Positions 9,334 through 50,207 of a stretch of DNA of 64,000 bases are shown one piece after another. The notes under the pieces were generated by a model. That model was given only the letters and a program-made list of their open reading frames with translations. It made no database searches and was not told the origin of the DNA. Origin of the DNA: a virus (lineage: Duplodnaviria > Caudoviricetes); IMG/VR virus record IMGVR_UViG_3300037478_000283, positions 4,567-68,566 of that record; one strand, given 5' to 3'. The position numbers were made by a program, and so were the translations under genes. Every line of letters begins with the position of its first letter. The stretch's first letter is position 1.

Positions 9334-11033
9334 AGCTCCGCGATTACCAGAAACGAGCGGTTAGAGAGATCGACAAGCGGATCAAGTCGGGTTGTCTCCG
9401 AGTGCTCGCGGTCGGTCCTGTTGCCTGCGGCAAAGGGACCATCGCAGCGTGGCGCCTTGCTCGGTTGGCACGCCAGGGCAAGCGCGGGATCCTGATCGTC
9501 CATCGTCGGGAGATCGTGCTCGACATTGCCGATCGTGTTCGCAAGGCCACCGGACAGGAGGTGGACGTCATCCTGCCGGGGCACAAGCGGAATGGCGCGC
9601 GAATCAAGGTCGCGAGCGTCCAGTCGTTGATCAAGGCGAAACACGTGCCGGTCGACGAGGTGATCATCGACGAATGCCACCACTACCCAGGGCCGTCGAA
9701 GTCGGAAGCCGAGGAGCGGCGGGCATGGCGGTCAGTGCTGCGGCGATACCGGCGGACGCCGATCGTTGGCTTCACCGCGACCCCGGAGCGCAGCGACCAC
9801 AAGCCGCTTGGCGAAGTGTTCCAGCAGATCGTCGAGATCGCGACCTACTCGGAGATGCTCCGGAAGCGAAAGCTGGTCCGATGCAGGGTGTTCCGTCCGG
9901 AGCGACCACTGAAGACCGACCTGGCCCAGGACGCCGTGGAGGCATACAAGCGCTACACGCCCGGCCGGTCGGCGTTCGTGTTCGTGAAGAGCGTTCATGA
10001 GGCCCACCGGGCAGCCGCGGCGTTCAAGAAAGCGAAGATACCAGCCGCATTCGTCACCGAGCGAACGCCGAAGCGAATCAGGGATGCCGCGCTTGCCGAC
10101 CTCGCCGCCGGCAAGATCAGCGTCGTCGTGAACGTCTACACGATGACCGAAGGCGTGGACGTGCCAGCGGTCGACACGATCATCCTTGGTCGGTGGGTCG
10201 ACCACGCGAGCACATATGTGCAGATCACAGGCCGAGCGATGCGGATGTTCGCGCGGAAGAAGCACGCGATACTGCTGGACCTTGCAGGCTCGAGCTGGGT
10301 GCACGGGTTGCCGCACGATGACCGGACGTACTCGCTGACGGGGCGACAGGCGATCGGGCAGCATCGCAAAGGCGATCCGCCGCCTCAGCGAGAGCGTGGA
10401 AGCGGAAGCGTGCTCGGTCTAGATCTGGTGGAGGTCGATCCGAATGGCGAGGTGCTGTGGCGGACATCGTTTCCCAATAAGAAAAAGGGTATCGATTGGG
10501 ACAAACAGCCACTCGGGAAAATGTACGATCGAGCGCTAGCTGACAAGTTAAGCGTATCACGTTCAAGTGTATGTCAAGCGCGCGAAAAACTTGGGATACC
10601 ACCATACGGTGAGTGCTACGATCTCGACGATCAGCCCTTTGGCAAGGTGCCTGATAGCGTCATTGCTGAAAAGCTTGGGATGTGTAATTCAACCGTGTCA
10701 AAAGCGCGTAGGATGCGAGGAATTCCATCGTGGTCGGCGAGTGCTGCCATCGATTGGGATAGCGAATTACGGCTCGGGAAGATGTCGGACGGAGCGCTTG
10801 CAAGTCTAATTGGTACAAGTCCCACCGCTGTCAGGTACGCTCGCGATCGTCGTGGGATCCCGGCGTATCCTAGGAAGAAGGTGGATTGGGATCAAGAAAC
10901 TCGCCTAGGCAAGATATTAGACTGTGAGCTTGCGAAACAACTTGGCGTGAGCCCAACTATCGTTGGGCGAGCTAGGGCTAGACGCGACATCCCACCATTC
11001 AAAAGCCAATCCACCACGAGCCAACCCACATGA
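9330..11033 (+). CDS. SF2 (DEAH-type) helicase with four C-terminal HTH-like repeats
   Basis: [39 protein letters not shown]; 4x DW...LGK..D..LA..LG.S...V..AR...GIP. Confidence 0.9.
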
Positions 11034-11230
11034 CCGACATCGTCACCGTGATCTCCCGCCACGTCACCCTCGTCAAAACCGGCGACAACTACAAGGGGTT
11101 GTGCCCGTTTCACACGGAGAACACGCCCAGCTTCAGCGTTAGCCCAGCCAGGCAGCGGTTCCTGTGTTTCGGCTGCGGAGCGGAGGGGGACGCGGAAGAG
11201 TTCGTGAGGCTGATGGAGGGCACCACATGA
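11030..11230 (+). CDS. stand-alone CHC2 (DnaG primase-type) zinc finger
   Basis: [39 protein letters not shown]; stop after 66 aa. Confidence 0.9.
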
Positions 11231-11370
11231 ACAAGGAATCGTTCAGCGACAAGGTGTGGACCGTGACGATCGCGATCATCCTGCTCGCATACGTCGGCGT
11301 GAGCATGTACGAGCGAGCGGTCCACCCGGAACGCACGAACCAGATCAGCTGCAACGCGGAGGACAAATGA
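11227..11370 (+). CDS. small membrane protein
   Basis: Single [21 protein letters not shown]; ATGA overlaps. Confidence 0.55.
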
Positions 11371-11588
11371 GCAAAATCACCAGTCACGAGATCAGTCTAT
11401 CCGTCAACGGATCCACCCTTGTGAACATATTCGTACTGCTGAATAGCAAGGATCCTGAAGTCGAACAGGCCGCGGCGAAGTTCGCGGAGGTAGCGATCGA
11501 GAATCTAATCGTTTCACTCCAGGCGGGAGGCGCGGAGATCCTCGCTAAACGGATGCTCAGACAGCATTACGAGGACTGCGCCAGGTAG
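11367..11588 (+). CDS. hypothetical protein
   Basis: ATGA overlap, GGAGG RBS. Confidence 0.55.
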   Translation: MSKITSHEISLSVNGSTLVNIFVLLNSKDPEVEQAAAKFAEVAIENLIVSLQAGGAEILAKRMLRQHYEDCAR

Positions 11589-11596
11589 GCAGGACC

Positions 11597-11767
11597 ATGA
11601 CGCTGATTGAATGGGCCACGGTGGCCGTTGCCTGCCTGGCAGCGCTGTCCAACCTGTGGTGGATCCATCGGCGCGTCGGACGGCTAGAGGCGATCGGAAG
11701 ACGGCGATCCGAAGCGTTGCGACAAGCATGCGCCCGGTTTGAGCCGCCGAAAGCGGGGCCCCGCTGA
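11597..11767 (+). CDS. small membrane protein
   Basis: MTLIEWATVAVACLAALSNLWWIHRRV; AGGA RBS. Confidence 0.5.
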   Translation: MTLIEWATVAVACLAALSNLWWIHRRVGRLEAIGRRRSEALRQACARFEPPKAGPR

Positions 11768-11799
11768 AGCACCATCGCACCACGTGGTTCTGTGACCGG

Positions 11800-12150
11800 G
11801 TGGCGGCTGACGTGGCTGCTGTGACCGGCGTGTCGGCCCGCGCTATGTTGGGGCGGTCCCAGCGTCGGCCGGTAGCCAGGGCCCGCATGCTTGCCTGGTG
11901 GCTATCAAGGGCAGCGTCAGGATGCAGCTACCTCGAGCTGTCCCGATACTGGCGCCGGGACCATTCGACACTAGTGCAGGCCTGCCAGCGGCTCGAGCGG
12001 TGCCTGGTGGTCGGCGGATGGGCCAGGCCCCTGCTCTGGCAGGTGCTGGCCGCTCAGCCGTCATGCTCCGCGCAGGTAGCTGAGGTCGTCGTCGCCACGG
12101 GTGGCGTAGTAGGCGAGGGCGACAGCGATGGCGGCATCGCCGTGCCGTGA
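11800..12150 (+). CDS. stand-alone DnaA domain IV (Bac_DnaA_C)-like protein
   Basis: VAAVTGVSARAMLGRSQRRPVARARMLAWWLSR...SYLELSRYWRRDHSTLVQAC matches the domain IV pattern (R..ar..a.yl.r...S..eig..f.RDH.TV); 3' end overlaps TerL convergently. Confidence 0.8.
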   Translation: MAADVAAVTGVSARAMLGRSQRRPVARARMLAWWLSRAASGCSYLELSRYWRRDHSTLVQACQRLERCLVVGGWARPLLWQVLAAQPSCSAQVAEVVVATGGVVGEGDSDGGIAVP

Positions 12151-13524
12151 CTTGCCGCGGTCGTCCCGGGACCTGGCCGATGGCAGCTTCGGGATCCCGT
12201 TGACGAGCTGGATCTGCTGAAGGTCGCTGCGTACGTTCGAGCAGCGCGGGATCAGGATCGTCTGCTGCTCGAACGCGGCCCGAAGCTCGGGAAGGTTCTC
12301 GGCGTACCACCGCTCGCTCAGGTGCAGCTCCTCGATCCGGTAGCGACCAAACTGGTCCGCGGCGGCCTCCGCCAGCTGCATGCCGATCCCGCCGGCATCA
12401 AGGACGCCCTGCTGCAGCCGTGGCAACGCGCCTCCGATGTGGAGCAGGATCCGCTCCTGCTGCCGGAACGGCACGTTGCGGAGCTCGACCAGGAACGGGA
12501 CCCGACGGACCAGGTTGTACTGGACCGCGACCGGGGCGATCACGGTGATGTCGCTGGTCCTGCCACAGTCGAAGCCGAACGAGTGATCCAGTCCAGGATC
12601 GAGCTCGCGCAGCAGTGGGTCGACTACAGCGTGCAGCCACTGATTGGTCTGCTCGGTGCGCTGCTCATCGGAGAGCTCCAGGAAGCTGTCATCCAGGTCG
12701 AGCCGCAGCACCGGAGCGTCGTGCATGCACCGCTCGATCATCGGACCGGTCAGGTAGGACTCGCCCGATGCTGCCGGGATGCAGTGGAACTCCTCGTCTG
12801 CGTGGCGAACGGCGGTCCGGATGATCATGTCCCGCCAGGCCTGTTCGCCGCGCTCGGTCCAGCAGATCCCATGCCCAAGGCAGATCCGTCGATAGAGCCC
12901 CTGCTGGATCGCCTCGTCGAAGGTCGTTCGGTGGACGGAGTGATCTGTTTCGCCGATCCTGGCCGCGACGATCATCCTGTTGAACGGGTTCTGATCGCCC
13001 CTGTGGGTCGAGATCAGGGCGATCCGGCCGCCCCAGACCAGGAATGCGGTAGCGGCCGCCATCCATGCTTCCAGGTCATCGTGATGCGCGGCCTCGTCGA
13101 GGATCGCGTAGCCACGTTTGCCACGAAGCCGCCTCGGGTGGGACGAGAGCGAGTGGATCCGATGCCCGCTGGCAAAGCGGATCTCGAACGCCAGTATGTC
13201 CTCCTTCTCGTCCTCGATCATCGTCTGCTGGGCAGCCCCGGTCAGCACGCAGAACGCGGCCACCCACATCTCGCAGTCACGAATGAACTCCTTGGCGTCC
13301 CTCTCGGTGGCCGCCATGAACCAGACGTCCTTGCCGCCGTCCCGCCGCCGCAGCATCGCCGTCATCACTGCTTCGGCGGCAGTGCACCAGGTAATCCCGA
13401 TCTGCCGGCTCTTCTCGCAGATCTTGACCAGGCTACGGTCAGCGACCCATCGCTGCTGGTACGGGAGCAGGACGGCTGGCAGCGGCTCGGCTGCCACTTC
13501 GTCCCGAGGAGCCGCCTGATTCAC
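12061..13524 (-). CDS. terL: terminase large subunit, Mu gp28-like
   Basis: LLPYQQRWV...EKSRQIGITW, ILDEAAHH, LISTHRGDQNPF, FGFDCGRTSDITV, HGDAAIAVALA; GTG 13524 with GGAGG RBS (ORF track extends to 13575). Confidence 0.92.
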   Translation of the reverse strand: MNQAAPRDEVAAEPLPAVLLPYQQRWVADRSLVKICEKSRQIGITWCTAAEAVMTAMLRRRDGGKDVWFMAATERDAKEFIRDCEMWVAAFCVLTGAAQQTMIEDEKEDILAFEIRFASGHRIHSLSSHPRRLRGKRGYAILDEAAHHDDLEAWMAAATAFLVWGGRIALISTHRGDQNPFNRMIVAARIGETDHSVHRTTFDEAIQQGLYRRICLGHGICWTERGEQAWRDMIIRTAVRHADEEFHCIPAASGESYLTGPMIERCMHDAPVLRLDLDDSFLELSDEQRTEQTNQWLHAVVDPLLRELDPGLDHSFGFDCGRTSDITVIAPVAVQYNLVRRVPFLVELRNVPFRQQERILLHIGGALPRLQQGVLDAGGIGMQLAEAAADQFGRYRIEELHLSERWYAENLPELRAAFEQQTILIPRCSNVRSDLQQIQLVNGIPKLPSARSRDDRGKSRHGDAAIAVALAYYATRGDDDLSYLRGA

Positions 13525-13760
13525 ACAGAAGCGCCCCTCCGCAGGAATGACCGGGTCAGCCCGCGGATCAGGCAACTGACGGTGGTGCCGATCCGGGCGG
13601 CGGCTCGCTGCAGGGCCAACACGTCGGCCGGCGACATGTCACACCGAACCGAATGGCGCCCCTCGGGCTCGAGGTCATCGACGGCCAACCCTAGATCCTC
13701 GAGGAAGCTGGCAAAAGCGGCCCTCTGGTCTTCGTTAGCCGCAGGGTGGATGACAGCCAT
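13521..13760 (-). CDS. small protein with RHH/CopG-like C-terminus, coupled to terL
   Basis: SVRCDMSPADVLALQRAAARIGTTVSCLIRGL; GTGA overlap with terL start. Confidence 0.55.
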   Translation of the reverse strand: MAVIHPAANEDQRAAFASFLEDLGLAVDDLEPEGRHSVRCDMSPADVLALQRAAARIGTTVSCLIRGLTRSFLRRGASV

Positions 13761-13814
13761 TGCGCGGGTGTGCGGGGTGCTATCGCACACATGAAATAGG
13801 GTGAAGAATGGAAA

Positions 13815-14507
13815 TTGATTTGTCAAATTGTGCCGGCAAGACTTCCACAGGTCCGGGATAGCGGATGTGGTATGCTCCAGAGCATCGACCTGAGGCCACA
13901 GGAGGTGCGCCCCGAGCACACCATCCCAGAGCTGGAAGCCCTGAGCGCCCGGCATCGAGTATTCGTGCTCACCTATTGCGGCATGCAAGGCTCTGTCGCG
14001 AAGTGGAACGCGACGGAAGCGGCGAGGCAAGCTGGCTACGCGCAGACCGACTCGCTGTATCGGACAGCCAGCGAGGTACTGCACCGCCCCGACGTCCGAG
14101 CCGCCATCAATGCGATCCTCGAGCTGAGGCGCCAGCGGTACTCGGAGATCATCGATCGAGCAGTGGAAGAACTAGCAGCGTTGGCGTTCGCGAAGATCAC
14201 CCCAGACGCCGCCGAGATCGTGAATGGCAACCTGATCATCAAGGACACGTCGGAGATGGACGAAGCTACGCAGCGTGCGATCGCTGAGATCTCGGAGACC
14301 GAAACGGCAAGCGGTAGATCGGTGCCGAAGCTGAAGATGCACAACAAGGCGCATGCGCTGGCCCTGCTGCTGAAGGTCACTGGTGGCATCGTGGAGCGCC
14401 ATGCTGGACCAGACGGCAAGGGACCGATACCGGTCAAGGTCGTAACGCCCGAGACAGTTGATGTGATCAAGCGTAAGATCCTCGGGATCGGAGAGGAAGA
14501 CGAATGA
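13815..14507 (+). CDS. terS: terminase small subunit (Terminase_2-like)
   Basis: LSARHRVFVLTY...NATEAARQAGYA...KLKMHNKAHALALLLK; true start may be 13872. Confidence 0.85.
   Translation: MICQIVPARLPQVRDSGCGMLQSIDLRPQEVRPEHTIPELEALSARHRVFVLTYCGMQGSVAKWNATEAARQAGYAQTDSLYRTASEVLHRPDVRAAINAILELRRQRYSEIIDRAVEELAALAFAKITPDAAEIVNGNLIIKDTSEMDEATQRAIAEISETETASGRSVPKLKMHNKAHALALLLKVTGGIVERHAGPDGKGPIPVKVVTPETVDVIKRKILGIGEEDE
13839..13852. promoter_or_regulatory. 14-bp motif AGACTTCCACAGGT, copy 1 (terL/terS divergent intergenic)
   Basis: Exact match to 22940-22953. Confidence 0.55.
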
Positions 14508-15232
14508 GCACGCAATGCCCCGACTGCAAAGGCACAGGAGTCTATGTCGGACTGGTGATACGCGAGCCGTGTCGGACGTGCGCGGAGAAGGGGCCGATCT
14601 TGGGGACCACCATCACCCGTGCGGACGTCCTGTATGAACCGAAGGAATGCAAGCACGGCACCGACGGCGCGGACGAAGATCCGAACATTTGCTCGGCTTG
14701 CTGCGCGGAGATGCGTGCGGCCGTTGAAGAGCTCACGGGCGTCGAGCAGGTGATCGCGAATGATCTTGGACTGCCGAAGGAGATCCTGTTCCCAGGGACC
14801 AAGAGAATCGGCGACCAGGTAGTGTTCCAGCCGTACCCGCAGCACATCGACTGCCGCTGCATAAGGGACGGCTCGCTCGCACGGCTCGACGTCGCTTACG
14901 ACTCCGAGCAGCAACCGCAGCAATTCGGCTCCAGGCTCCAACAGTTGTTCAAGCCGTCCATACAGCACGTCGACTGCCGCAACATTGAGAGCGGGGCGAC
15001 CCGCGAGATGGTCGCGCACGCGATCAACTACGCAATCGCGGAAGGACAGTTCATTGGTGTATTTACTGGCGAGAAAGATGCCCGAATCGCATTACGGTGG
15101 GCAGTTGAGGCGCGGAGTCAAATCATGGAGCGAGGGCTGCCGCTGCGCGCCTCGGTCGACGGCCCCATGATCACGATCACGTCTGTGACGCTTCCACCCA
15201 TAACCTATGCGGCAACCGACTCGGAAACGTGA
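14504..15232 (+). CDS. hypothetical protein with CxxCxGxG zinc finger
   Basis: CPDCKGTG...CRTC, CKH...CSAC; internal QH(I/V)DCR repeat. Confidence 0.6.
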   Translation: MSTQCPDCKGTGVYVGLVIREPCRTCAEKGPILGTTITRADVLYEPKECKHGTDGADEDPNICSACCAEMRAAVEELTGVEQVIANDLGLPKEILFPGTKRIGDQVVFQPYPQHIDCRCIRDGSLARLDVAYDSEQQPQQFGSRLQQLFKPSIQHVDCRNIESGATREMVAHAINYAIAEGQFIGVFTGEKDARIALRWAVEARSQIMERGLPLRASVDGPMITITSVTLPPITYAATDSET

Positions 15233-15506
15233 CCACGCCCGCGGGTAGCGTCGCGACGATCCGGAACAGGTAGAGACCGGGCTCACCAAAGTCGTCGACC
15301 TGCCACTGGTAGGTCACCCGGCCAGTTTCAGGATCCGCGTCGACAGTCATCGCTGATGTCTTCATTGTGCCGCCGGGAGCCAGCCACCATTGCAGCTCGA
15401 CCGTGGCGCCAGTGAGATCCTGGGCTACCCCAACGTCGTTCTCGACGGTTCGAGAAAGCGCCCGCCCGGTGTCGCCCATTACCAGGTATTCGGTGTTGAT
15501 CGTCAT
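15177..15506 (-). CDS. BppU N-terminal-like (baseplate upper/fibre adaptor) protein
   Basis: MGDTGRAL...DLTGATVEL...GRVTYQWQVDD...GLY...TFP pattern. Confidence 0.7.
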   Translation of the reverse strand: MTINTEYLVMGDTGRALSRTVENDVGVAQDLTGATVELQWWLAPGGTMKTSAMTVDADPETGRVTYQWQVDDFGEPGLYLFRIVATLPAGVVTFPSRLPHRLWVEASQT

Positions 15507-17740
15507 CGTCGGATCCTCGTGTAGCCAAGGTTGCCGCGTGTAGCTCCGGTGCCTATGGAGCCACCGCCGGAGAGTCCCGTGCTGTGCCCGGACACCGGGG
15601 GGATATCGAAGGCCAGCTCAACCGCCGCGACCGGACCGAACCCCGTCGGCTCACCCGCTGTCCCGGATACCGTGATCTGAGCCGTTGCCTCGACATTGGA
15701 TGCGGTCGGAGCGCCTGCTCGAGCAGCGACGAACCCACCGACCTGCATCGTGAGATCGGAGGCGGTCGGCTGGCCCGCTGCACCTGCAACGATCAGGCTG
15801 GCCAGGCCGGACGGCGACGCCTCAGTGGTTGACCCCTGAACCGCTTGAACCGAAACCGAAGCGGTTCCAGGGAGATCACTCTCGGTCGGGCTGCCAGCAG
15901 TGCCGGCGACCGGAAGCAACGCTTCCCCGGAGACGTCCGCCGCCGGCGCCGTGCCGGTCGTGCCCGACACGGTATGGATCGCCGTCGCCTGGAACCCCTC
16001 CGATGTCGGCGCCGCGAGTACGTCGACGACCTGAAGCGCAGCCAACGAAGCAACGTCGCGGGCCGTCGACTCATAGACGCCAGCAACCGTCAGTGTCAGG
16101 GCTGCGGGGAAGCCGACGGCTGTCGGAGCACCGGCGACACCGGCGATCCCTGTGGCTGCCAGGCTCGCCTGAAGGTCTGACGCGGTGGGGGTTGAGGCTG
16201 CGCCGGCGACTGTGAGCTGCCCGGTCGCAGCCAGTCCTGAGGCTGTCGGTGACCCTGCCTGGCCCGCAACGGGGACGCTGGCAGTGGCGGCGGTGTCGGC
16301 TGAGCTCGGGCCCTCGGTCGTGCCAGCGACCGCTAGCAGGGCTAGCGCCCCGAGGTCGGCTGACGTCGGGGACGCGGCGACGCCTTCGATCGCCAAGTTG
16401 TCCCCGACCTCGCCCTCGAGATCGGTGGCCGTCGTGGGGCCGGCGGATCCAGCAACGGCGATCCGCTCGGTCGCACCGATGTCAGCAGTCGTGGGAGTCC
16501 CGGTCTGGCCGGCGACCGGGAGGACCGCTGTCGCTGCGACGTCCCTGGCCGCCAGGTCACCCGCGGTTCCGGCGACCGTGAGCAGCCCGGTTCCTGACAG
16601 ATTGACCGACGTCCCCGGATCGAGCGACCCGGCGACAGCGATCGATTCGGTGCCAGCGAGGTCCGTCGCGGTCGGAGCCGGGACTTCGCAGGCGATCCGC
16701 AGCACGACCGTGGCCGCCAACGCGAGCAGCGTCGGGAGGCCGGTCTGGCCGAGCACGAACGGGTCGGCCGCCATGTCCGTCGCGGTAGGAGCCCCGACGG
16801 AGCCCGAGACGGCGAGCTGGTCGGCAGCGGAGACGTCGACGGCGGTCGGCGAGCCGGTGACGGCAGTGACGGGCAGGGAAACGGTCCCGGCTAGGTTCGT
16901 GGCGGTGACGGCCCCGGACGAGCCCGAGATCTCCAGATCGACCTCGATGGGATCGATGATCTCCGGATCTGGGAAAACGCCGTTGACCGTCAGTTGAACT
17001 GTCGAACTCGGGTCGACGGAGGTCGGGGCCGCAGCCTGCCCGCTGACCAGCACGATGGACGCCGACAGGTCCGTCGCGGTCGGTGAGCCGGCGACGCCCT
17101 CGACCGAGATCGACAGGGTCACGTCGGCCGCGAGGTCGACGGCGGTCGGCGAGCCGGTCGAACCTGCGGAGGAGAGCCGATCGGTCGCCGCCAAATCGGC
17201 TGCGGTCGGGCCGCCGGTGACGCCGGTGACCTCGAGCCCCGCGATCGTCCACGGCGCCGACACCCGCACACCCGCGCTCCCGATCGTGTAGTCGAGGGCC
17301 TCTGCACCATGCAGCGTCGTGTCGCGTAGCACGAAGTCGACGCGGGGCCGGTCGCCGGCTGCCCACGTCCCGAGGTCCAGGCTCGCGAACGCACCGCCGC
17401 TGAACGTCTTGGTGCCCGCGCTCGCCAGCTGCTCACCGTGGAGGCCTGACGATGCTTGAACGGTCCCGGACGAGTTGACGCGATGAATCCGGACGTCGAG
17501 CTGTAGATCAGCGTTGCCGGTCGTGATGTCGATCGTGACCGTGTAGTCGCCGGTGACGCCATCGACGCCTGGAACGCCCGCCTCTGTGAACCCGTAGTCG
17601 GTCTCCGTCGTATCGGTCGTGACCGACACGCCTAGCGTCGTCGAGCCAGGAGCGGTGGCGACGAGCGTGTTAGAAAAGTTAGTAGGAGACGGACCCGTCA
17701 GGTCTGAGGCTACAGTGGTCAGGAAATAATCAGTCGCCAC
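15503..17740 (-). CDS. 745-aa fibre-like protein: N-terminal globular domain plus ~27 x 20-aa repeats
   Basis: Repeat consensus (L/I)xVAGxxGxPTAxDLxA from about aa 168 to the C-terminus. Confidence 0.8.
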   Translation of the reverse strand: MATDYFLTTVASDLTGPSPTNFSNTLVATAPGSTTLGVSVTTDTTETDYGFTEAGVPGVDGVTGDYTVTIDITTGNADLQLDVRIHRVNSSGTVQASSGLHGEQLASAGTKTFSGGAFASLDLGTWAAGDRPRVDFVLRDTTLHGAEALDYTIGSAGVRVSAPWTIAGLEVTGVTGGPTAADLAATDRLSSAGSTGSPTAVDLAADVTLSISVEGVAGSPTATDLSASIVLVSGQAAAPTSVDPSSTVQLTVNGVFPDPEIIDPIEVDLEISGSSGAVTATNLAGTVSLPVTAVTGSPTAVDVSAADQLAVSGSVGAPTATDMAADPFVLGQTGLPTLLALAATVVLRIACEVPAPTATDLAGTESIAVAGSLDPGTSVNLSGTGLLTVAGTAGDLAARDVAATAVLPVAGQTGTPTTADIGATERIAVAGSAGPTTATDLEGEVGDNLAIEGVAASPTSADLGALALLAVAGTTEGPSSADTAATASVPVAGQAGSPTASGLAATGQLTVAGAASTPTASDLQASLAATGIAGVAGAPTAVGFPAALTLTVAGVYESTARDVASLAALQVVDVLAAPTSEGFQATAIHTVSGTTGTAPAADVSGEALLPVAGTAGSPTESDLPGTASVSVQAVQGSTTEASPSGLASLIVAGAAGQPTASDLTMQVGGFVAARAGAPTASNVEATAQITVSGTAGEPTGFGPVAAVELAFDIPPVSGHSTGLSGGGSIGTGATRGNLGYTRIRR

Positions 17741-17741
17741 G

Positions 17742-41519: not shown

Positions 41520-41524
41520 TGGCC

Positions 41525-42190: not shown

Positions 42191-43607
42191 GGCCGCACCA
42201 TGGGGACTATCAGATTCCGGTTACTCCAGGCCTCGCTATTCGGAGATCCGTTCCGTACTCGAACAGCGGTTCAAGGGGCGCTTCGGCGAGAACCGCAACA
42301 CCAGCGACGACACGCCCGACGGGCACATCATCAGTTGGGTCTCCGAGATCATGGATCTGGTCTTCCAGGCGGACGAGGGCGCCTATCTTTCCACGTTCGT
42401 GGCGAGTGCCAACGGCGCCGCTCTCCGCGAACTGGGTGTCGGGATCATCGGCGAACCCAAGAGTGCCGCTGCCAGCACGGTCGAGCTCGTGCTCTACGGC
42501 GACGACACCACTGTCGTGCCGGCGCAGAGCCAAGCGAAGATTGCGGATTCAACGGTCGTTTTCGAGACCGATGCCTCCGCCACTCTCGGTGCCACCGATC
42601 AGACTTGGGTGGTACGGATCGATACGGTTGTAGATTCTCAGCTGTATCGGATCACGGTCGACGGAGACGACTACGATTTCACCAGTGACGGCTCAGCGGC
42701 CATGCAGGAGATCGTCGATGGCCTGGTGGCTGAGCTCGACGCCGATGCCGATATCACCGCCTACAACGGAGGCGTGGACGGCAACGGGCTCGGACTGATC
42801 GTGCTCGACACGACCGCCCCGGTTGCAGCGCCAACCGTCAACGGCAACATGACGGTCAGACATGCCGCAAGGGTTGCCGCGACCGCGATCGCTACGGGGC
42901 CATTCTCGGCTCTCGCCGGATCAACCTGGTCCATCGAGACCCCAGTGAGCGGATGGATCGGCGCGGCCAACACCGATGACGCGGTGCTCGGCCAAAACGA
43001 CGAAACAGACGAGGAATACCGACAGCGTATCCGCCTTTCGACTCGTTACGGTGGGATCGCGGCAAATGTCCTGAAGGTCACAGGTGTCACGTACGCCCGC
43101 ACGTACGAAAACGACACGGATGACACCGATGCCGAGGGGCGACCGCCGCATAGCGTGGAAACCGTGGTGCTAGGCGGCGCCGATGACGATGTGGCACAGG
43201 CGATCTGGGATATGAAGGCGCAGGGCGTGCAGACAATAGGACTCGGCACACCGGACAGCGGGATAGCTATCGACGAGGCGGGCGTGAGCCGAACCGTCAA
43301 CTTCTCCCGGGCCACGGAACTCGATATCTACGTGACCGTGACCGTCACGCAGGGCGAAGACTGGCCCACGACAGGGACTCCACTTGCAGAGATCCGCGAC
43401 GCGATCGTTGATTATGTCAACGCGCTTGGCGTCGGTGGCGACGTCACGCCGGCCGGCATCTTCGCCGCAGCGGTCGGCGCTGTAACGCAGATCGCGAACC
43501 TCGCGATCCTGATCGATGACACGACTCCGCCTGTGACATCGGGAGTATTCGCGATCACGACACGACAGATCGCAACAACCGATTCGACCAAGGTGGTGGT
43601 GGCGTGA
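42189..43607 (+). CDS. baseplate J/gp47 protein with inserted module
   Basis: GAALRELG...GPFSALAG...GQNDETDEEYRQR...YEN.TD.TDAEGRPPHSVE.VV.GG. Confidence 0.92.
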   Translation: MAAPWGLSDSGYSRPRYSEIRSVLEQRFKGRFGENRNTSDDTPDGHIISWVSEIMDLVFQADEGAYLSTFVASANGAALRELGVGIIGEPKSAAASTVELVLYGDDTTVVPAQSQAKIADSTVVFETDASATLGATDQTWVVRIDTVVDSQLYRITVDGDDYDFTSDGSAAMQEIVDGLVAELDADADITAYNGGVDGNGLGLIVLDTTAPVAAPTVNGNMTVRHAARVAATAIATGPFSALAGSTWSIETPVSGWIGAANTDDAVLGQNDETDEEYRQRIRLSTRYGGIAANVLKVTGVTYARTYENDTDDTDAEGRPPHSVETVVLGGADDDVAQAIWDMKAQGVQTIGLGTPDSGIAIDEAGVSRTVNFSRATELDIYVTVTVTQGEDWPTTGTPLAEIRDAIVDYVNALGVGGDVTPAGIFAAAVGAVTQIANLAILIDDTTPPVTSGVFAITTRQIATTDSTKVVVA

Positions 43608-44197
43608 GCCACGGGACACTACACGGGCTGATTCACGGCACCGGTGCCGATCTGGTCATTGACCAGGTTCAAAAGGCGCTCGACCGGCTCTATGTGCAGC
43701 TCGAGGGTTCTCCGAAGATCGAAGGTCTGGCGGAGTGGATCGGGGAACAGCTGCAGCATGTTGAAGAGATTGTCCACGACACGGCATGGTTCCGGTTCAC
43801 ACGACAGGCACACGGGGAACAGCTCGATCGCCTACTTGATAACTATTCCGAGAAACGTGCCGGCATGAGCGATGCGGATGCCGAGGCAATGCTGCTCGTG
43901 CTGAACCCTGCACTGTTTCAGTTCAGAAGCGCGATGCGAATGATCGCTATTCTCGTGGTGCTCACGAATGGTACCGGATCCACGTTTGGCTACGACGAGG
44001 ATTACCCGCTAGCATTCGTGGTGACCCTGCACGATGTCACGACGGCCCGCGGCGCACACTGGAATCGCGTGCTGCGAAAGGCCAAGGCTGAGGGCGTGAG
44101 GATGGATACCGTCGTGGCAGAGGATTTAGCCAACGCGTTTCAGTTCGACATCGGTCCAGGCTTCGATCAAGGCAAGTTCGCCTACGTACTCGAGTGA
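43604..44197 (+). CDS. baseplate wedge (DUF2612-like)
   Basis: SPKIEGL...AHGEQLDRL...FQFDIGPGFDQGKF. Confidence 0.8.
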   Translation: MSHGTLHGLIHGTGADLVIDQVQKALDRLYVQLEGSPKIEGLAEWIGEQLQHVEEIVHDTAWFRFTRQAHGEQLDRLLDNYSEKRAGMSDADAEAMLLVLNPALFQFRSAMRMIAILVVLTNGTGSTFGYDEDYPLAFVVTLHDVTTARGAHWNRVLRKAKAEGVRMDTVVAEDLANAFQFDIGPGFDQGKFAYVLE

Positions 44198-44204
44198 GGG
44201 CAAC

Positions 44205-45197
44205 ATGGCACGTCCCGACAAACTACCATTTTGGAACACTGGCGGTGCGAACCGAACGGAGCCCAGCGACGGCAAGAAGTCCGAAGGCTGGACTCTCAAC
44301 GAGATCCCGCCGGCCAGCTGGTTCAACTATTGGCAGAACAAGGTCCGTGAGTGGATCCAGCACCTAGATGGGACGTTGCCTATGGCCGGCGATGGGACCG
44401 ACGGCGACGTTACGATCGCTGGTACCGTAACGCTCACGCGTGACATGTACTATCTGACGCTGACCGTGCCGAACACCGCGATCCTCGACACCGCCGGTTT
44501 TCGCGTGTTCGCGAGCCAAAGCATCACAGTCGAGACCGGTGGGATCATTCGCCGCAACGGCAACGCGGCGAGCGGTGTGACTGGCGGTTCGATCCATGAC
44601 GCAACGATCGCGAGCCTGGCTGGTGGGTTGAACGGTGGCGCTGGAGGATCGGGTGCTGCCGCGCCAGGAGTCGCTGGTGCCTCGGCGACAAACGGACTCG
44701 GTGGAGGTGGAGGGAAAGGAGGCGATATCACGGGCTTGTACTCTGGCGGTGCCGCCGGGAGCGCGAACGCCCCCGCAGCGAACAAGGGCGGCTTTCGTCA
44801 CCAGCCGTGGCTCGGCTATCTGCTCTGTCCGAACGCGTCGAGTAGCCTAGAGTTCCTCCGCGGCGGAGCCGGCGGTGGTGGAGGTGCCTGCAACACTGCT
44901 GGTCAGGACGGTGGAGGCGGTGGAGGTGGTGGTGGTGTCGTGATTCTGTGCTCGCCATCGATCACCGTTGCGGGCCAAGTCCAAGCACGCGGAGGGGTCG
45001 GCGCTGATGCATCAGGCGGAGAGGCTTCCGGCGGTGGCGGTGGCGGCGGTGGCCTGATCATCGCGGTCGGTCGGAACATTGACACGACGGCTGGACTGAT
45101 CGATACGACTGGCGGATCCGGAGGTGACCGATCCGGGACGACGAGCGAGGATGGCGTTGCGGGCTCGACCGGGACATACATCCCGTTCACGGTGTGA
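44205..45197 (+). CDS. tail fibre protein, Gly-rich
   Basis: EPSDGKKSEGW....IPPASWFNYW N-terminal attachment motif; GGGGG-rich body. Confidence 0.85.
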   Translation: MARPDKLPFWNTGGANRTEPSDGKKSEGWTLNEIPPASWFNYWQNKVREWIQHLDGTLPMAGDGTDGDVTIAGTVTLTRDMYYLTLTVPNTAILDTAGFRVFASQSITVETGGIIRRNGNAASGVTGGSIHDATIASLAGGLNGGAGGSGAAAPGVAGASATNGLGGGGGKGGDITGLYSGGAAGSANAPAANKGGFRHQPWLGYLLCPNASSSLEFLRGGAGGGGGACNTAGQDGGGGGGGGGVVILCSPSITVAGQVQARGGVGADASGGEASGGGGGGGGLIIAVGRNIDTTAGLIDTTGGSGGDRSGTTSEDGVAGSTGTYIPFTV

Positions 45198-45205
45198 CCA
45201 TGAGC

Positions 45206-45493
45206 CTATAGATCGCAACCTGACGACGGATCGAGGCACACTCCGCCGAGCGTACAATCGACGTCGTGTTCGCAAGGTTGGCGACATTCGGATCGTGTCG
45301 GCGATATAAGCACGCACACCCTTGTCGGCTCCGGGCATCCAATCGGGAAGCCATCGGGGCACGGGCAGACTTCTCGATTTGCGTCGCACTCGGCATCGCC
45401 AGTAGATCCGTCGTCTACCGATCGATCATCGTCAGCAATGGGTACGGGTCCGCATCCCGCCAAGATCACCAGAATCGCAATGCGTCGCATCAC
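45206..45493 (-). CDS. Cys-rich lipoprotein
   Basis: RRIAILVILAGC lipobox; CRQPCEHDVDC..GGVC motif. Confidence 0.75.
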   Translation of the reverse strand: MMRRIAILVILAGCGPVPIADDDRSVDDGSTGDAECDANREVCPCPDGFPIGCPEPTRVCVLISPTRSECRQPCEHDVDCTLGGVCLDPSSGCDL

Positions 45494-45756
45494 GCAGCGC
45501 CTTTCTGGATAATGGCGAGTTCCTGCTGGCGACGCTTGGCGGCTGCGAGCTCACGTTCAGAATCCGTGAGTGTGCCCATGGTCTCGAAGCTACGGGCGAT
45601 CACGTACGGGACGATCGCTGCTGCTGCTGCGAAGGCTGCGGCCGCTGCCTGTTGCGGCGCGCTGTCCGATGCCGCCCACATGGCAGCCCCGAACAGACCA
45701 CCACCGACGGCACACAGCGCGGATAATGATGCGAGTACTCGTGCGACTTGAATCAT
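45490..45756 (-). CDS. two-TM membrane protein
   Basis: Two hydrophobic helices around SAPQQAAAAA; GGAGG RBS. Confidence 0.7.
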   Translation of the reverse strand: MIQVARVLASLSALCAVGGGLFGAAMWAASDSAPQQAAAAAFAAAAAIVPYVIARSFETMGTLTDSERELAAAKRRQQELAIIQKGAA

Positions 45757-45947
45757 GTTTCGATCCTCCCGTTTGGCGCGGGTTTGAGAGTTGCGGGTGC
45801 GGCAGGGCGCCAACCCTGACGCGTCCACCGGGCCCCGGCTTTTGCCCGGCAGTCCGGGCCGGGGGAGGATCACCCTCGACCCGACACGATCACAATGATC
45901 AGGATAGGTAGCGCGCGCAACGCTGGACGTTCGGGCAGGTGGGAGGT

Positions 45948-46118
45948 CTACGCCGCCCGGTCCCGCTCGACCGCCTCGGTCTCAAGCAGATCCCGCTCCG
46001 CTGCCCAGGCCACCCCGTGCAGGGTCCGGGGCTGGTCCTGGAGCGTGCGTCCGTCCGGAGCGGAGATCGTCCAGCGGCCCACCTTGGGGCTCCAGACGGC
46101 TCGGTATCCGGTCGACAT
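45948..46118 (-). CDS. hypothetical protein
   Basis: MSTGYRAVWSPKVGRWTISAPDG... Confidence 0.45.
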   Translation of the reverse strand: MSTGYRAVWSPKVGRWTISAPDGRTLQDQPRTLHGVAWAAERDLLETEAVERDRAA

Positions 46119-46180
46119 GAGACACTCGCACATAGCGCAAGTGTGCACCTGCGCGCGGTTCTGTCAAGCGCGTCTCGCAC

Positions 46181-46981
46181 CTACCCGGCCCGCGAGCCTG
46201 GGCGAGTCAGCTCCGACAGCTGTCGCCGTGTGAGCCCGAGTGTGCGTGCCACGTCAGCGTGTGCCCTGCCCTCCTCGAGCATGTGTAGCGCGAGTCGTCG
46301 CCGGGCCACCGCGATGGCACGTGTGATCGCGACGTCGGCTCGCCTCGCTCGGTTGCCGCGGTGCAGCCCAAGCTCTCGGAGATATCGCCGAGCGGTCCGC
46401 CAGTCCACGCCGATCTCCTGGGCAGCCTGCTGCGGCTCCACGCCGGCCGTGACCATCGCCGCGAGCTCAGCCTGCCTGCCGAGTCGTGCCCGAGTACGCT
46501 CCGTCGGCACATCGGTCGCCTGCAGCTCACGGCGCACGGTACCGGGGTGGATCCCGAGCTCGCGTGCAAGGTCGGCGGTCGAGGTGACCCCCTCGGCGAC
46601 GAGCCGGCGGAGGTCGTCTCGCCACTGCTCGTGCCGCTGCCCGGTCTCGAGGTCTCGTGGCAGCGGAAGGTCGGCGACGGCTCGACGCACAGTCGACACT
46701 GAACACCCGAGCTCAGCCGCGATCTGATCCAGCGTGAGCCCGTCGCGGCGTAACTGACGAGATCGCTCGGTTCGGTGGTCGCGGGGCCCGGTGGCGGACT
46801 TGCTGCGTTTGCGCTCGGCGGCCCTAAGCGCGCCGATGCCTCGCAGCTCTTGCAGTAGCCGGCGCGTGGGCTGGTAGCTCGATCCGATCGCCTCCGCGAT
46901 CCTCGTTTCGCCCCAGCCGCAGGCGTAGAGGTCGATCGCTTGAGCGATCTGTTCGCGGGTGTGTTCGGATCGCCGGGGCAT
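46181..46981 (-). CDS. protein with five tandem HTH motifs
   Basis: IAEAIGSS, IAAELGCSVSTVRR, LARELGIHPGTVRR, AAQEIGVDWRTARR, VARTLGLT. Confidence 0.85.
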   Translation of the reverse strand: MPRRSEHTREQIAQAIDLYACGWGETRIAEAIGSSYQPTRRLLQELRGIGALRAAERKRSKSATGPRDHRTERSRQLRRDGLTLDQIAAELGCSVSTVRRAVADLPLPRDLETGQRHEQWRDDLRRLVAEGVTSTADLARELGIHPGTVRRELQATDVPTERTRARLGRQAELAAMVTAGVEPQQAAQEIGVDWRTARRYLRELGLHRGNRARRADVAITRAIAVARRRLALHMLEEGRAHADVARTLGLTRRQLSELTRPGSRAG

Positions 46982-47105
46982 TAGTCGTTGCCAGATGGGT
47001 CGGACGTGTCGACGTCGCCGACGATGATCATGCCATCCTGATCCGTGAGGTAAGCGACCGATATCCAAGTCGAGATAAACCTACACCGAAGAGACGAGCA
47101 CGACG

Positions 47106-47660
47106 ATGACAGAACGATCGCCGAACGAATGGATCGAGATGCCACTTTCACAGCTCGACCCGAACCCCAAAAACCCACGAATGATCACGGGCGAAAACCT
47201 TCGCCGGCTCCGGCGGTCAGTTCGCCGATTCGACCTGGTCGAAAACCTGGTGTGGAATCGAAGAACGAAACGGCTCGTCGGCGGGCATCAACGGATGCGA
47301 GTACTACGGGCGCTCAACCGTGAAAAGGCGATGGTGTGTGTGGTCGATATTGACGAAGAGGAGGAGGCTGCACTCATGATCCAGCTCAACAATCCTCACG
47401 CTCAGGGCGAATTTTCCGAGGATCTGAAGAAACTACTCGACGATCTCCAGGACTTCGACTCGTTCGATGCGTTGGGGCTGGACCAGCTGGGCGACTTCGA
47501 CGACGACATGGATCTTGCCGGCGAAAGCGACGAATCAGAGGAGCCAGACTCCGGACTGACCTACTCCGTGATCGTGGACATGACCACCGAAGACGAGCAA
47601 GGGAAGCTTCTCCAAGAGCTCGAGGATAGGGGATATCAATGCCGCTTGCTCATCTCGTAG
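47106..47660 (+). CDS. ParB/Srx-like protein with small C-terminal ferredoxin-like domain
   Basis: LDPNPKNPR...LRRSVRRFDLVENLVWN...LVGGHQR...LNN; YSVIVD..TEDEQ..L...L..RGY.C. Confidence 0.88.
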   Translation: MTERSPNEWIEMPLSQLDPNPKNPRMITGENLRRLRRSVRRFDLVENLVWNRRTKRLVGGHQRMRVLRALNREKAMVCVVDIDEEEEAALMIQLNNPHAQGEFSEDLKKLLDDLQDFDSFDALGLDQLGDFDDDMDLAGESDESEEPDSGLTYSVIVDMTTEDEQGKLLQELEDRGYQCRLLIS

Positions 47661-48748
47661 TCGAGACGAAGGTTTCGACGTCGGTCCGAGCGCGCCAAGT
47701 CGAGGCGTTGTTTGACGTACCAAGACAGGAGAAGTGCCGGCTTGAATGGAAGGGCGACGTGCCGATCGACGAGCGCCAGTGGAACGTCGGCCTGATCGTG
47801 GGACCGAGCGGATCGGGCAAGAGCTCGATCGCCCGGCACCTGTTCCCGGAGCAATACGCTGCCGAGCTCGAATGGAACGCTCCGTCGGTCATCGACGATT
47901 TTCGCGGTGACCTCGGCATCGACGCGATCTCGTCTGCGCTCTCCAGCGTCGGGTTCAACACGATCCCGGCGTGGCTCCGCCCGTACGCGGTGCTTTCGAC
48001 CGGCGAGCGGTTCCGGGTCGAGGTCGCGCGACGCGTGCTCGAGCTCCCTGATCCTGTAGTGATCGACGAGTTCACCTCCGTCGTGGATCGGCAGGTTGCC
48101 CAGATCGGCTCCCATGCGATCCAAAAGTTCGTCCGACGCAACAACCGGAAGCTCGTTGCTGTCGGGTGCCACTTCGATGTGATCGACTGGCTTCAGCCAG
48201 ACTGGATCCTCGAGCCGGCGACCATGAGCTTTCAATGGAGGTCGGTTCAACGAAGGCCAACGCTCGACATCGAGGTGGCAAAGGTCACGTATGACGCCTG
48301 GCGCCTTTTCGCTCCGTTCCACTATCTGACCGCCGATCTTAATCAATCGGCTCAGTGTTTCTGCACGTTTGTCGGAGGCCGACCCGCGGCATTCATCTCC
48401 GTCATTCACTTCCCCCATCCGAAGGTTCGCGACATCAAACGCGTCCCGAGACTCGTGACTCTGCCGGACTGGCAGGGTCTGGGCCTCGCGCCGCACCTGT
48501 CCGACACGATGGGCAGTGCCTACAAGGCGATCGGGTACCGCCTGCGGACGTACCCGGCCCACCCCGCGCTCGTGATGACATTCCGCAAGTCGCCGCACTG
48601 GAGACAGGTCAAGGAGGCGGGGACGTTCCAGGGACTTCGAGGCAACTCGGCCAAGTGCAATATCGGAACCCAACGCCCATGCGCCACGTTCGAATACTGC
48701 GGGCCGGCTATGGACCGAGTCGACGCTCGACGTCTGGTGGGAGTCTGA
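47639..48748 (+). CDS. ABC-type ATPase fused to GNAT-fold acyltransferase
   Basis: GPSGSGKSS, signature LSTGERFR, VVIDEFTS, H-loop VGCH; then RLVTLPDWQGLGLA acyl-CoA motif A. Confidence 0.88.
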   Translation: MPLAHLVVETKVSTSVRARQVEALFDVPRQEKCRLEWKGDVPIDERQWNVGLIVGPSGSGKSSIARHLFPEQYAAELEWNAPSVIDDFRGDLGIDAISSALSSVGFNTIPAWLRPYAVLSTGERFRVEVARRVLELPDPVVIDEFTSVVDRQVAQIGSHAIQKFVRRNNRKLVAVGCHFDVIDWLQPDWILEPATMSFQWRSVQRRPTLDIEVAKVTYDAWRLFAPFHYLTADLNQSAQCFCTFVGGRPAAFISVIHFPHPKVRDIKRVPRLVTLPDWQGLGLAPHLSDTMGSAYKAIGYRLRTYPAHPALVMTFRKSPHWRQVKEAGTFQGLRGNSAKCNIGTQRPCATFEYCGPAMDRVDARRLVGV

Positions 48749-49094
48749 ACAGGCGCAGTCGTCCCGGACACGGCACAGGTTCGCAAGGTCGAGGCTCATC
48801 CAGGAGCCAACCGATGGGGCCCATGAACCATCGGCTGCTGGCCTCCGTGACGGACCCCAACACGCGCACGCTGCCGATAACGGCGCCGCGGATGTACCCG
48901 TCTGGCTCAGGCATGACTAAACCGAGACCCCTCGCGAACCTGATGCCGTCGCGATCGACCCGGAGCGACGCATGGATCCATATCCGCTCACCAATGATGG
49001 CAGGCGGAGGTTGCCAGCTTCGATTCTCGATGGGCTTGCAACCCATTACAACGAGCCAAGCCCACGGTTGTCTGAGGCTGAGTGCTAGCATCAC
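48708..49094 (-). CDS. ASCH domain protein
   Basis: ALSLRQPWAWLVVMGCKPIENRSW...IWIHAS...GAVIGSV...W.L..P. Confidence 0.92.
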   Translation of the reverse strand: MMLALSLRQPWAWLVVMGCKPIENRSWQPPPAIIGERIWIHASLRVDRDGIRFARGLGLVMPEPDGYIRGAVIGSVRVLGSVTEASSRWFMGPIGWLLDEPRPCEPVPCPGRLRLFRLPPDVERRLGP

Positions 49095-49435
49095 GGCACC
49101 ACCATGATGGGCCAGCGACGTCGCATCTCGAGTAAAGTAGCACTCAAGACGAGTTCTCGCTTATTGGCGCCAGTTCGAACTGGCACACCGCGCTCCTGTA
49201 GCAGCTCGATCAGTAGCTGCTTCGGCATTGCCTTGGCCGTTTTTTCGATCTCTTCCATATCGCGTCGCGATGCATCCCGATCCTCCTGCTCAAGCCAGTC
49301 TGTCGCCGGAGGTAAGAACGACGCACGGACCTCACTGAACGTCGTGCCCGGATCGGGCTTCACCTGCCTCCCGCACGCGCCGGCCCCGTAGCAGGGTGCG
49401 TAGTATCGGCGGTGAATGTAGCGAGTCTCGTTCAT
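49091..49435 (-). CDS. hypothetical protein
   Basis: AAAGGAG RBS; C-terminal SAP-like KQLLIELLQERGVPVRTGANKRELV. Confidence 0.6.
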   Translation of the reverse strand: MNETRYIHRRYYAPCYGAGACGRQVKPDPGTTFSEVRASFLPPATDWLEQEDRDASRRDMEEIEKTAKAMPKQLLIELLQERGVPVRTGANKRELVLSATLLEMRRRWPIMVVP

Positions 49436-49557
49436 TGTTCGGTCTCCTTTCGTGGTGCGCGTAGCTGTTGTCGACGTTGGTACAGGGCTCGTTCGGACGT
49501 AAGTACGCGCTCGAGCTCGGCGCGGTCCATGTTAGTCGCGGTCTGTTCGGGTTTCAT
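49432..49557 (-). CDS. 41-aa hypothetical protein
   Basis: GAGG RBS, ATGA overlap. Confidence 0.4.
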   Translation of the reverse strand: MKPEQTATNMDRAELERVLTSERALYQRRQQLRAPRKETEQ

Positions 49558-49586
49558 GATTCAGTTCCTCAAGAGCGCTGGGGTGC

Positions 49587-50207
49587 TTACAATCGCATCG
49601 GCATCACAACGTAGGTCCACTCACACGAAAAATCGCCCGCGTCGGCCTTGATCACGACGGGATCGAGCGCGCCTCCTATGTAGAGCGCGATCGTGCCGAC
49701 CTTACGATCGCATGCGTCCGCCAGCTTGGCGACGTGTGCGAGATAGTGGCCGTTTAGGCCGATTTTTGCCGCTGGGTTACCGTGCGGCGTTTTGGGGACC
49801 ACTTGCCACCATGGCGGAAAGTGGTTTGCCGAGAGCACAACGTTCGTGGCCGCGAGCTCGCGGCCGTGCTTGTCGATCACTCGCACGTGGGCGCTCTCAC
49901 AATTCGGCCGTATCGCAATCGTGTGATTCGACCGCGCCATTTTTAGCACGTTCGCCAGCGTCGCCGCGGGGACCTTTTTCGCGCCTACGTCGGCCGATGG
50001 GCTGGCCGACTTGCAAGCGAGTAAGCGGTGGCCGTCGGTCGCGACCGCGGTGCCCCGTTCGGAATCGAGTAGAATTTGCGTCAGATTCACGCGGCTATCG
50101 TCGCGGCTCGCACACTCGAGTAAGGCGGCTAATTCGGCGCGGGTGAACGTCCATTCGTTTTCTTGGGTTCCAGACGGGTGCTCGCAGTCGATCACTTCGA
50201 TTTTCAT
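49587..50207 (-). CDS. truncated DNA polymerase III beta-clamp-like protein
   Basis: ASRDDSRVNL...VATDGHRL...FPPWWQVVP...IGLNGHYL...YVVMPMRL; 206 aa, no domain I. Confidence 0.85.
   Translation of the reverse strand: MKIEVIDCEHPSGTQENEWTFTRAELAALLECASRDDSRVNLTQILLDSERGTAVATDGHRLLACKSASPSADVGAKKVPAATLANVLKMARSNHTIAIRPNCESAHVRVIDKHGRELAATNVVLSANHFPPWWQVVPKTPHGNPAAKIGLNGHYLAHVAKLADACDRKVGTIALYIGGALDPVVIKADAGDFSCEWTYVVMPMRL

Follow-up and report, generated by a model that had tools for sequence, protein, structure and literature searches.

The three genes

The stretch of viral DNA analysed here, which we call the window, is 64,000 nucleotides long. It spans bases 4567-68566 of a viral contig from IMG/VR, which has 68,566 bp, a G+C content of 62% and an estimated completeness of about 79% (CheckV). 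Its large terminase is of the Mu type, with about 44% identity to those of BcepMu/phiE255-like phages of Burkholderia and relatives, and this likeness suggests a proteobacterial host. The window carries three short open reading frames (ORFs) that each match only a part of a bacterial replisome protein, DnaG, DnaA and the beta clamp DnaN respectively:

11030..11230, plus strand: 66-aa ORF consisting of a DnaG-type CHC2 zinc-binding domain (ZBD) only, PF01807 (Zn_ribbon_DnaG)
11800..12150, plus strand: 116-aa ORF with a DnaA domain IV helix-turn-helix (HTH; residues 5-67) and a 49-aa tail, PF08299 (the DnaA-IV ORF)
49587..50207, minus strand: 206-aa mini beta-clamp made of domain II and one beta-alpha-beta-beta-beta unit of domain III, phrog_3007 (the mini-clamp)
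50222-50216, minus strand: Shine-Dalgarno sequence AAAGGAG of the mini-clamp, 8 nt before its ATG, a strong ribosome-binding site (RBS)
50276-50249, minus strand: promoter-like TTGATC-16-TATGAT with an extended -10 upstream of the mini-clamp; the evidence is weak, with 1 such match found and 0.6 expected

An earlier sequence-only reading had taken the first ORF for the primase zinc-binding domain alone, the second for DnaA domain IV without an AAA+ domain, and the third for a clamp that keeps three motifs and with them the pocket for clamp-binding peptides, but lacks domain I and half of domain III. In each of them a recognition module would thus have been kept and the catalytic or ring-forming part lost. 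All of this anatomy agrees with the domain matches and the structural model described below. The same reading had also joined the three proteins into a coordinated replisome kit, and that part did not hold up. All three domain matches are far beyond chance, but the joint presence of the three genes on one contig need not be more than chance, and the mini-clamp, the ZBD and the DnaA-IV ORF are separate, previously seen gene types.

A clamp of one and a half domains

The mini-clamp matches phrog_3007 with an E-value of 2e-21 over profile positions 8-186 of 190, and the profile of its relatives matches solved beta clamps at E. coli residues of about 136-252 and 314-366. With TIGR00663 it reaches 23.8 bits, where the cut-off is 137.65, and does not have the three-domain architecture of DnaN; no PF00712 (DnaN domain I) was found in a six-frame search of the whole contig. 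The AlphaFold2 (AF2) model has a predicted local distance difference test score (pLDDT) of 82.7 and shows two beta-alpha-beta-beta-beta units, which make up domain II, followed by a single one, the C-terminal half being predicted with lower confidence (pLDDT 72-84 versus 92-95). Superimposed on residues 125-366 of peptide-bound E. coli beta, the model gives a Z-score of 16 and a root-mean-square deviation of 2.9 A over 178 residues (VIA). The protein shares with E. coli DnaN (PDB 1MMI, 6FVL) the fold of domain II and of the last domain III repeat in their native orientation, but differs from it in that domain I is missing together with the first half of domain III, the repeat that makes the dimer contact. 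The known dimer-interface residues are hence missing as well, and I78, F106, I272, L273, R103, E298 and E304 all fall in segments that the mini-clamp does not have. Judged from the model, it is a clamp of one and a half domains, in which a continuous II/III sheet with the pocket is kept in the native II/III geometry.

Curated lists of the pocket and interface residues of beta are available from a 2024 review (PMC11139829). Of the 18 pocket residues, which form subsites I and II, 16 are the same in the mini-clamp as in E. coli beta, compared with 42 of 167 aligned positions overall (25%). Across the family, pocket residues account for 14 of the 25 best-conserved columns, though the pocket makes up only 18 of 190 columns (p 2e-11). 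Near-invariant in an alignment of 98 members are S34, D36, R39, T57-D58-G59-H60, P131, P183, M202, P203 and R205, and the motifs ATDGHRL, FP..V.P and MPMRL, to which the sequence-only reading had drawn attention, are the most conserved positions of the family.

A monomeric beta with the substitutions I272A/L273A still binds DNA and binds delta about 50-fold tighter than the dimer does, but does not support processive synthesis (PMC11139829). Like the mini-clamp it has no ring and an intact pocket, but it is an engineered three-domain protein, while the mini-clamp is without half of that. By analogy, it is plausible that it could serve as a useful model of how the mini-clamp behaves. Other phage strategies are likewise centred on the beta-clamp hub, as seen for Gp168 of Staphylococcus phage Twort (PDB 7EVP) and MuC of phage Mu (PMC12867686). 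These two, however, are ligands that bind the host clamp, whereas the mini-clamp takes the opposite part and copies the pocket of the receptor.

The mini-clamp family

When 1.8 billion representatives were searched exhaustively with the profile, 33,946 matches were obtained, and the family is described here from the best 150 of them. These are mostly 175-260 aa long and cover the whole profile in one stretch, whereas DnaNs of 360 aa match in three stretches and rank lower. The family has a fairly constant length of about 175-215 aa and more than 100 representatives at 50% identity, and the query matches its profile with an E-value of 4e-68. No natural tandem or fused mini-clamps occur among the best 150, and in the longer members the extensions resemble no known domain, so that fusions had to be given up as a source of hints to the function.

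The phylogeny was made on the shared domain II columns with 137 short forms and 31 phage and 39 cellular full-length forms. The label short or full changes 3 times on the tree, compared with 58 times when the labels are shuffled, and a single origin of the short form is not rejected (p of the approximately unbiased test 0.45). The mini-clamp of the window sits inside the starred set of 70 rows, all of which are mini-clamps. Going by these sequences, it belongs to an old and widespread phage family, which may have a single origin. Bacterial genomes scanned with the family alignment yielded full-length cellular DnaN alone, and hence no host range for the mini-clamp.

Short phage homologues of the Pol III beta subunit were noted already in 2011 by Kazlauskas & Venclovas (PMC3201878), who regarded them as horizontally acquired and probably dispensable. 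They were described as covering the second and third domains, whereas here only half of domain III is present. Phrog_3007 and the genes of Dhillonvirus, Sodalis phage SO-1 and Edwardsiella phage PEi21 are of the same family as that of the window, these phage genes having 24-29% identity over 89-99% of the protein, the same length and the same missing parts. In GenBank the gene of Dhillonvirus and related phages is annotated as Pol III beta subunit, or wrongly as a RusA-like resolvase, and PHROG mislabels it likewise. No functional study of the family was found in the literature searched.

The solitary primase zinc-binding domain

Residues 2-64 of the ZBD ORF match PF01807 with an E-value of 1.6e-25 and 89 bits (cut-off 24.9), and the four zinc ligands C25, H28, C46 and C49 are intact. 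The match to TIGR01391 covers positions 14-76 only, with 91 bits and thus below the cut-off of 283.6. The ORF ends at residue 66, without the RNA-polymerase core (DNAG_N and Toprim) and the helicase-binding domain, and six-frame searches found no DNAG_N, Toprim_2 or Prim-Pol on the whole 68.6-kb contig. Its ATG overlaps the TGA stop of the upstream superfamily 2 (SF2) helicase gene (ATGA), and a G+C content of 0.87 at third codon positions (GC3) is a strong codon signal.

The nearest sequences are DnaG N-termini with 55-63% identity, two of which are labelled Thiomonas and Oceanospirillales. Short CHC2 proteins of the large protein collection were considered as solitary relatives and rejected, the matches that we inspected on longer contigs being pieces of cellular dnaG operons and not solitary genes. 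Judging from its sequence, the ZBD ORF looks like a captured 5' end of a cellular dnaG that has been retained as an accessory of the helicase module. Action in trans is known for DnaG ZBDs, and because of that it is, by analogy, conceivable also on the DnaG of the host. Mycobacteriophages of cluster A have a split primase (e.g. Goose gp57 and gp56), in which the CHC2 ZBD is likewise an ORF of its own. There an overlapping second ORF supplies the remaining primase, whereas in the window the ZBD is not followed by anything like a primase, nor does the contig have one. On a cellular contig (L160, bases 5001-7089) a separate 102-aa CHC2 ZBD ORF lies directly before a complete dnaG with its own ZBD, upstream of rpoD, in what looks like a duplication of the ZBD.

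The DnaA domain IV protein

Residues 5-64 of the DnaA-IV ORF match PF08299 (Bac_DnaA_C) with an E-value of 9e-11 and 42.1 bits (cut-off 31.5). It aligns to residues 379-446 of E. coli DnaA, the RDH(S/T)T signature included, and is 28% identical to that protein. TIGR00362 is matched at positions 354-418 only, with 33 bits versus a cut-off of 343.9, and neither the AAA+ domain III nor domain I is present; in-frame stop codons upstream leave no room for an AAA+ domain. GC3 is 0.76 in the domain versus 0.56 in the tail, where the composition is like that of non-coding DNA. The 3' ends of the DnaA-IV ORF on the plus strand and of the large terminase gene on the minus strand share 90 bases (12061-12150).

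The residues that contact the bases of a DnaA box are R399, P423, D433, H434, T435 and H439 (PDB 1J1V). In the DnaA-IV ORF the domain is intact; D433 and H434 are kept and T435 is present as S, while H439 is changed to Q and P423 to L, and the R399 position aligns to Q with arginines adjacent to it. With these three positions altered, binding to DnaA boxes is, as far as the alignment tells, not assured. DnaA boxes are present in the window at chance level, 1 against 0.85 expected. This sole perfect box, TTATCCACA, is found at 60475-60483 on the plus strand, in the gap between the divergent ORFs 60164-60445 (minus) and 60571-60900 (plus), just downstream of a tRNA-Trp (59968-60038). No cluster of DnaA boxes, no iterons or other repeats, and no terminators or promoters were found near the ZBD and DnaA-IV ORFs.

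Regions that resemble domain IV of E. coli DnaA are rare in phages; 48 of 50,697 phage records have one, and several of those 48 are host DNA. The genuine phage ORFs sit in replication modules: that of phage C72C1 (CDS0048, 116 aa) comes after Sak and SSB, that of Rhizobium phage RHph_TM3_3_3 (gp086, 152 aa) after DUF1376, and that of Aurantimonas phage AmM-1 (gp63, 396 aa) before a primase. All three have a domain IV HTH without AAA+ in a replication or recombination module, as is the case here, but they differ from each other in size and partner domains, and the DnaA-IV ORF of the window is very divergent; its identity to CDS0048 of C72C1 is 43.5% over residues 6-67. Since the DnaA-IV ORFs of other phages lie in replication modules, it seems more likely that this one takes part in replicating the phage itself, or in regulating that, than that it competes with the DnaA of the host.

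The three genes do not travel together

The mini-clamp is 38 kb away from the ZBD and DnaA-IV ORFs, on the other strand and in a different transcription unit. Neither PF01807 nor PF08299 is present in any of 18 viral records with a mini-clamp, of which 8 are at least 90% complete. A phmmer search for relatives of the ZBD and DnaA-IV ORFs spanned 80 clamp loci, with 45 short-clamp loci (+/-10 kb) among them, and 21 loci of relatives of the adjacent SF2 helicase, and none were found at any of these. Elsewhere each of the three types is met on its own. The coordinated kit of the sequence-only reading, for which co-occurrence across phages had been named as a check, finds no backing in these counts, as the other two genes are absent from all mini-clamp records. 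Because the genes do not co-occur and each type is found alone, the combination is unique to this contig among the records surveyed and bears no sign of a joint function.

Neighbours of the mini-clamp

The mini-clamp heads a three-gene operon on the minus strand, and two further genes follow close by:

49091-49435, minus strand: 114-aa ORF of no family, downstream of the mini-clamp
48708-49094, minus strand: ASCH-domain protein, with a stop/start overlap with the 114-aa ORF
47639-48748: ATPase-GNAT protein, phrog_11143
47106-47660: ParB-N/methyltransferase (MTase)-like gene, near the mini-clamp

At 5 of 80 viral loci an ASCH gene is found no more than 10 kb from the clamp gene, which is short at 1 of them and full-length at 4. 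The nearest record sharing mini-clamp neighbours is G008, with which the ParB-N/MTase-like and ATPase-GNAT genes are common and where a mini-clamp is likewise no more than 2 kb away from them. It was rejected as a close relative of the phage, as the two have 6 shared genes only. The three ORFs gave no meaningful match to the PADLOC defence models.

Elsewhere the relatives of the mini-clamp sit among small early or accessory genes. In Dhillonvirus the Nmad5 gene (PF18757, E 7e-56) is directly upstream of the mini-clamp on the same strand, and in Escherichia phage rolling (L003, 6159-7495) the two form a two-gene island opposite to the strand of the head genes. Nmad5 has been reported as the trigger of the Tmn defence, in a paper where the adjacent clamp-like gene is not mentioned (PMC11846954), and it is also discussed in PMC9476957. 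One record (L117) has a C5 methylase 0.9 kb downstream of the mini-clamp; in another (L086), a DUF4942 methyltransferase lies upstream of it at a distance of 1.1 kb. Nmad5 was absent from 25 other mini-clamp records in a search whose positive control was silent, and although 13 of 40 records have methyltransferases of PF00145 or PF01555, these lie at distances of 3-20 kb or more from the clamp. A link to DNA modification, by Nmad5 or by methyltransferases, was for these reasons set aside as local to a few lineages.

No polymerase of family A, B or C was found on the whole contig by six-frame searches, and none of eight near-complete mini-clamp genomes has PolA, PolB or PolC. Control phages with a full-length three-domain DnaN are equally without (0 of 18, of which 6 are near-complete; families A and C), and we therefore dropped the absence of a polymerase as an argument specific to mini-clamps. 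Phages without a polymerase that carry a clamp of their own seem to be a general pattern, and both the mini-clamp phages and those with a full-length DnaN presumably work with the Pol III holoenzyme of the host.

Weighing the explanations

We think it fairly probable, from what the sequences tell, that the three ORFs are real and independent accessory or replication genes, where the mini-clamp binds proteins with a clamp-binding motif (CBM), the ZBD is a helicase accessory and the DnaA-IV ORF encodes an HTH protein. The mini-clamp family would derive from a DnaN that lost domain I as well as one of the two domain III repeats. We infer that its members most likely bind a QLxLF-type peptide, either of a host protein (Pol III alpha or epsilon, delta, Hda, MutS/L or the translesion synthesis polymerases) or of a phage protein, and that they would do so without the canonical head-to-tail ring, the result being sequestration or recruitment. 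It is reasonable to infer from the sequence that the mini-clamp could act as a decoy or an adaptor. The ZBD would be a fragment of the 5' end of a cellular dnaG, translationally coupled to the SF2 helicase with its HTH repeats, and most likely a zinc-ribbon accessory of the phage replication module for recognition of single-stranded DNA or the template, possibly also in trans on the DnaG of the host. The DnaA-IV ORF may be a small HTH DNA-binding protein of the replication block, whose target would not necessarily be the DnaA box.

Several observations weigh against this explanation. True ring clamps, too, are best conserved at their pocket residues, and the retention of the pocket alone does not exclude a clamp-like role. 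The basic residues of the channel-lining helices are retained in the family, with K or R in 85% of members at the R205 position and in 72% at K136, which is as frequent as in full-length clamps or more, and the median isoelectric point is 6.4 in the family versus 5.5 in full-length clamps. A free decoy would not need these basic helices, and their retention thus argues against a purely soluble decoy. In the phage proteome we found 4 clamp-binding motifs, none of them terminal, where 5.7 were expected, and no CBM partner; lacking such enrichment, a phage-encoded CBM ligand was rejected. The DnaA-IV ORF starts with GTG without a clear RBS and has no close relatives, as a search of 5.8 billion proteins returned itself alone, and it has no PHROG match. 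The contig is moreover incomplete, with ends that abut replication and nucleotide-metabolism genes, and a primase catalytic gene or a polymerase could sit in the missing part.

According to another explanation, the mini-clamp is not a free monomer but is paired, two copies completing each other's half domain III to give an open arc with two pockets, or is assembled from four copies into a ring of six domain equivalents; with its basic helices the assembly would still contact DNA, and it would tether CBM proteins to the DNA of the phage. Self-association by complementation of the half domains is physically plausible, as the half domain exposes core surface, and the lower pLDDT of the C-terminal half fits with this, as do the retained or enriched basic residues and the higher isoelectric point. 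The lack of any natural tandem or fused form among the best 150 representatives and of known domains in the extensions of longer members speaks against it, and because monomeric beta also binds DNA (PMC11139829), the basic helices do not require an oligomer. We regard such an assembly as rather unlikely. The more specific thought that the mini-clamp is a new device for tethering to DNA, a two-copy open arc that would need no loader, with its basic helices on the phage DNA and with host CBM proteins such as Pol III or repair enzymes recruited to it, perhaps together with the ZBD and the DnaA-IV ORF, appears quite improbable. That the ZBD and DnaA-IV ORFs could instead be inert debris of a cellular dnaG and dnaA, brought in by illegitimate recombination, would agree with the high identity of the ZBD to DnaG N-termini and its want of close solitary relatives, and with the absence of close relatives, the GTG start and the non-coding-like tail of the DnaA-IV ORF. 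The ZBD has however kept its four ligands, its codon signal and its translational coupling to the helicase, while the DnaA-IV ORF is above the Pfam cut-off despite its 28% identity to E. coli DnaA, which makes it an old maintained domain and not a recent fragment, and similar small ORFs are present in the replication modules of other phages. We hold debris to be unlikely.

The coordinated kit would mean that the three domain-only proteins jointly act as dominant-negative decoys or adaptors that shut down or redirect host replication, the clamp pocket soaking up CBM proteins, the ZBD interfering with the host primase and domain IV blocking DnaA boxes. It is true that each of the three has kept a module by which a replisome protein of the host makes its recognition contacts, and that a phage whose contig has neither polymerase nor primase catalytic domain must deal with the enzymes of its host. 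The need for the Pol III of the host would at the same time make a wholesale sequestration self-defeating, and with DnaA boxes at chance level, altered base-contact residues, the separation of the genes in different operons on different strands, their failure to co-occur in any record or locus and the occurrence of each type alone elsewhere, the kit can hardly be considered probable at all. Only a little better stands the thought that the mini-clamp works together with DNA-modification enzymes and links the modification of bases to replication. The ASCH, ParB-N/MTase-like and ATPase-GNAT genes near the mini-clamp in the window would go well with it, as would the Nmad5 gene of Dhillonvirus and the methylases near two other clamps, but given the silent-control search that found no Nmad5 in the other records, and the distance of most methyltransferases from the clamp, we find it very improbable.

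Bacterial replication and repair have their central docking hub in the pocket of the beta clamp, which is also an antibiotic target, and a widespread natural protein that is nearly nothing but this pocket could become a tool or a lead, for instance as a sponge for clamp-binding proteins. The family could also show how phages without a polymerase cope with the replisome of their host. This is a matter of the whole family, which was already known, and not of this window; the part that was specific to this phage, the three-part kit, is the one that did not hold up.

The replication block of the phage

The ZBD and DnaA-IV ORFs are the last members of a replication block on the plus strand, which runs from upstream of the window to 12150 and abuts the convergent terminase gene, with the structural genes next to it. 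The order is VRR-NUC nuclease, DnaB-type helicase, a 360-aa AAA+ ATPase, MazG-like protein, a 1199-aa orphan, VanY-like peptidase, SF2 helicase, ZBD ORF, a small ORF and the DnaA-IV ORF. The larger genes that bear on replication are:

contig 2802-4073, plus strand: DnaB-type helicase, the phage's own, outside the window
window 1..774, plus strand: 3' part of the 360-aa AAA+ ATPase (start at contig base 4258), a putative helicase loader that follows the DnaB-type helicase
window 2377-5976, plus strand: 1199-aa ORF with a good coding signal
window 9330..11033, plus strand: SF2 helicase (ResIII and Helicase_C) with four tandem HTH repeats of about 40 aa C-terminally, phrog_16 (E 1e-63)

A 101-aa ORF lies between the DnaB-type helicase and the 360-aa AAA+ ATPase, within contig bases 2802-5340. 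The best specific likeness of the ATPase, a weak one, is to the Hda/DnaA clade (TIGR03420, E 4e-7), and from this it is a possible helicase loader or initiator. An Hda/DnaA-like ATPase and a separate DnaA-IV ORF in the same block raise the idea of a split DnaA-like initiator.

The 1199-aa ORF has no match in Pfam, PHROG, NCBIfam or sequenced phages. The lone signal is a weak MukB/JetC-like coiled-coil match at residues 211-516 (E 2.5e-5), and with the family libraries silent it was rejected as a hidden polymerase or primase. The HTH repeats of the SF2 helicase lie at about residues 385-560, with Pfam HTH matches at 400-420, 441-461, 483-503 and 533-558, while in its relatives from viral contigs the similarity is limited to the helicase core, residues 1-340. 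With these repeats, the protein could be a candidate for the origin-binding helicase of the phage.

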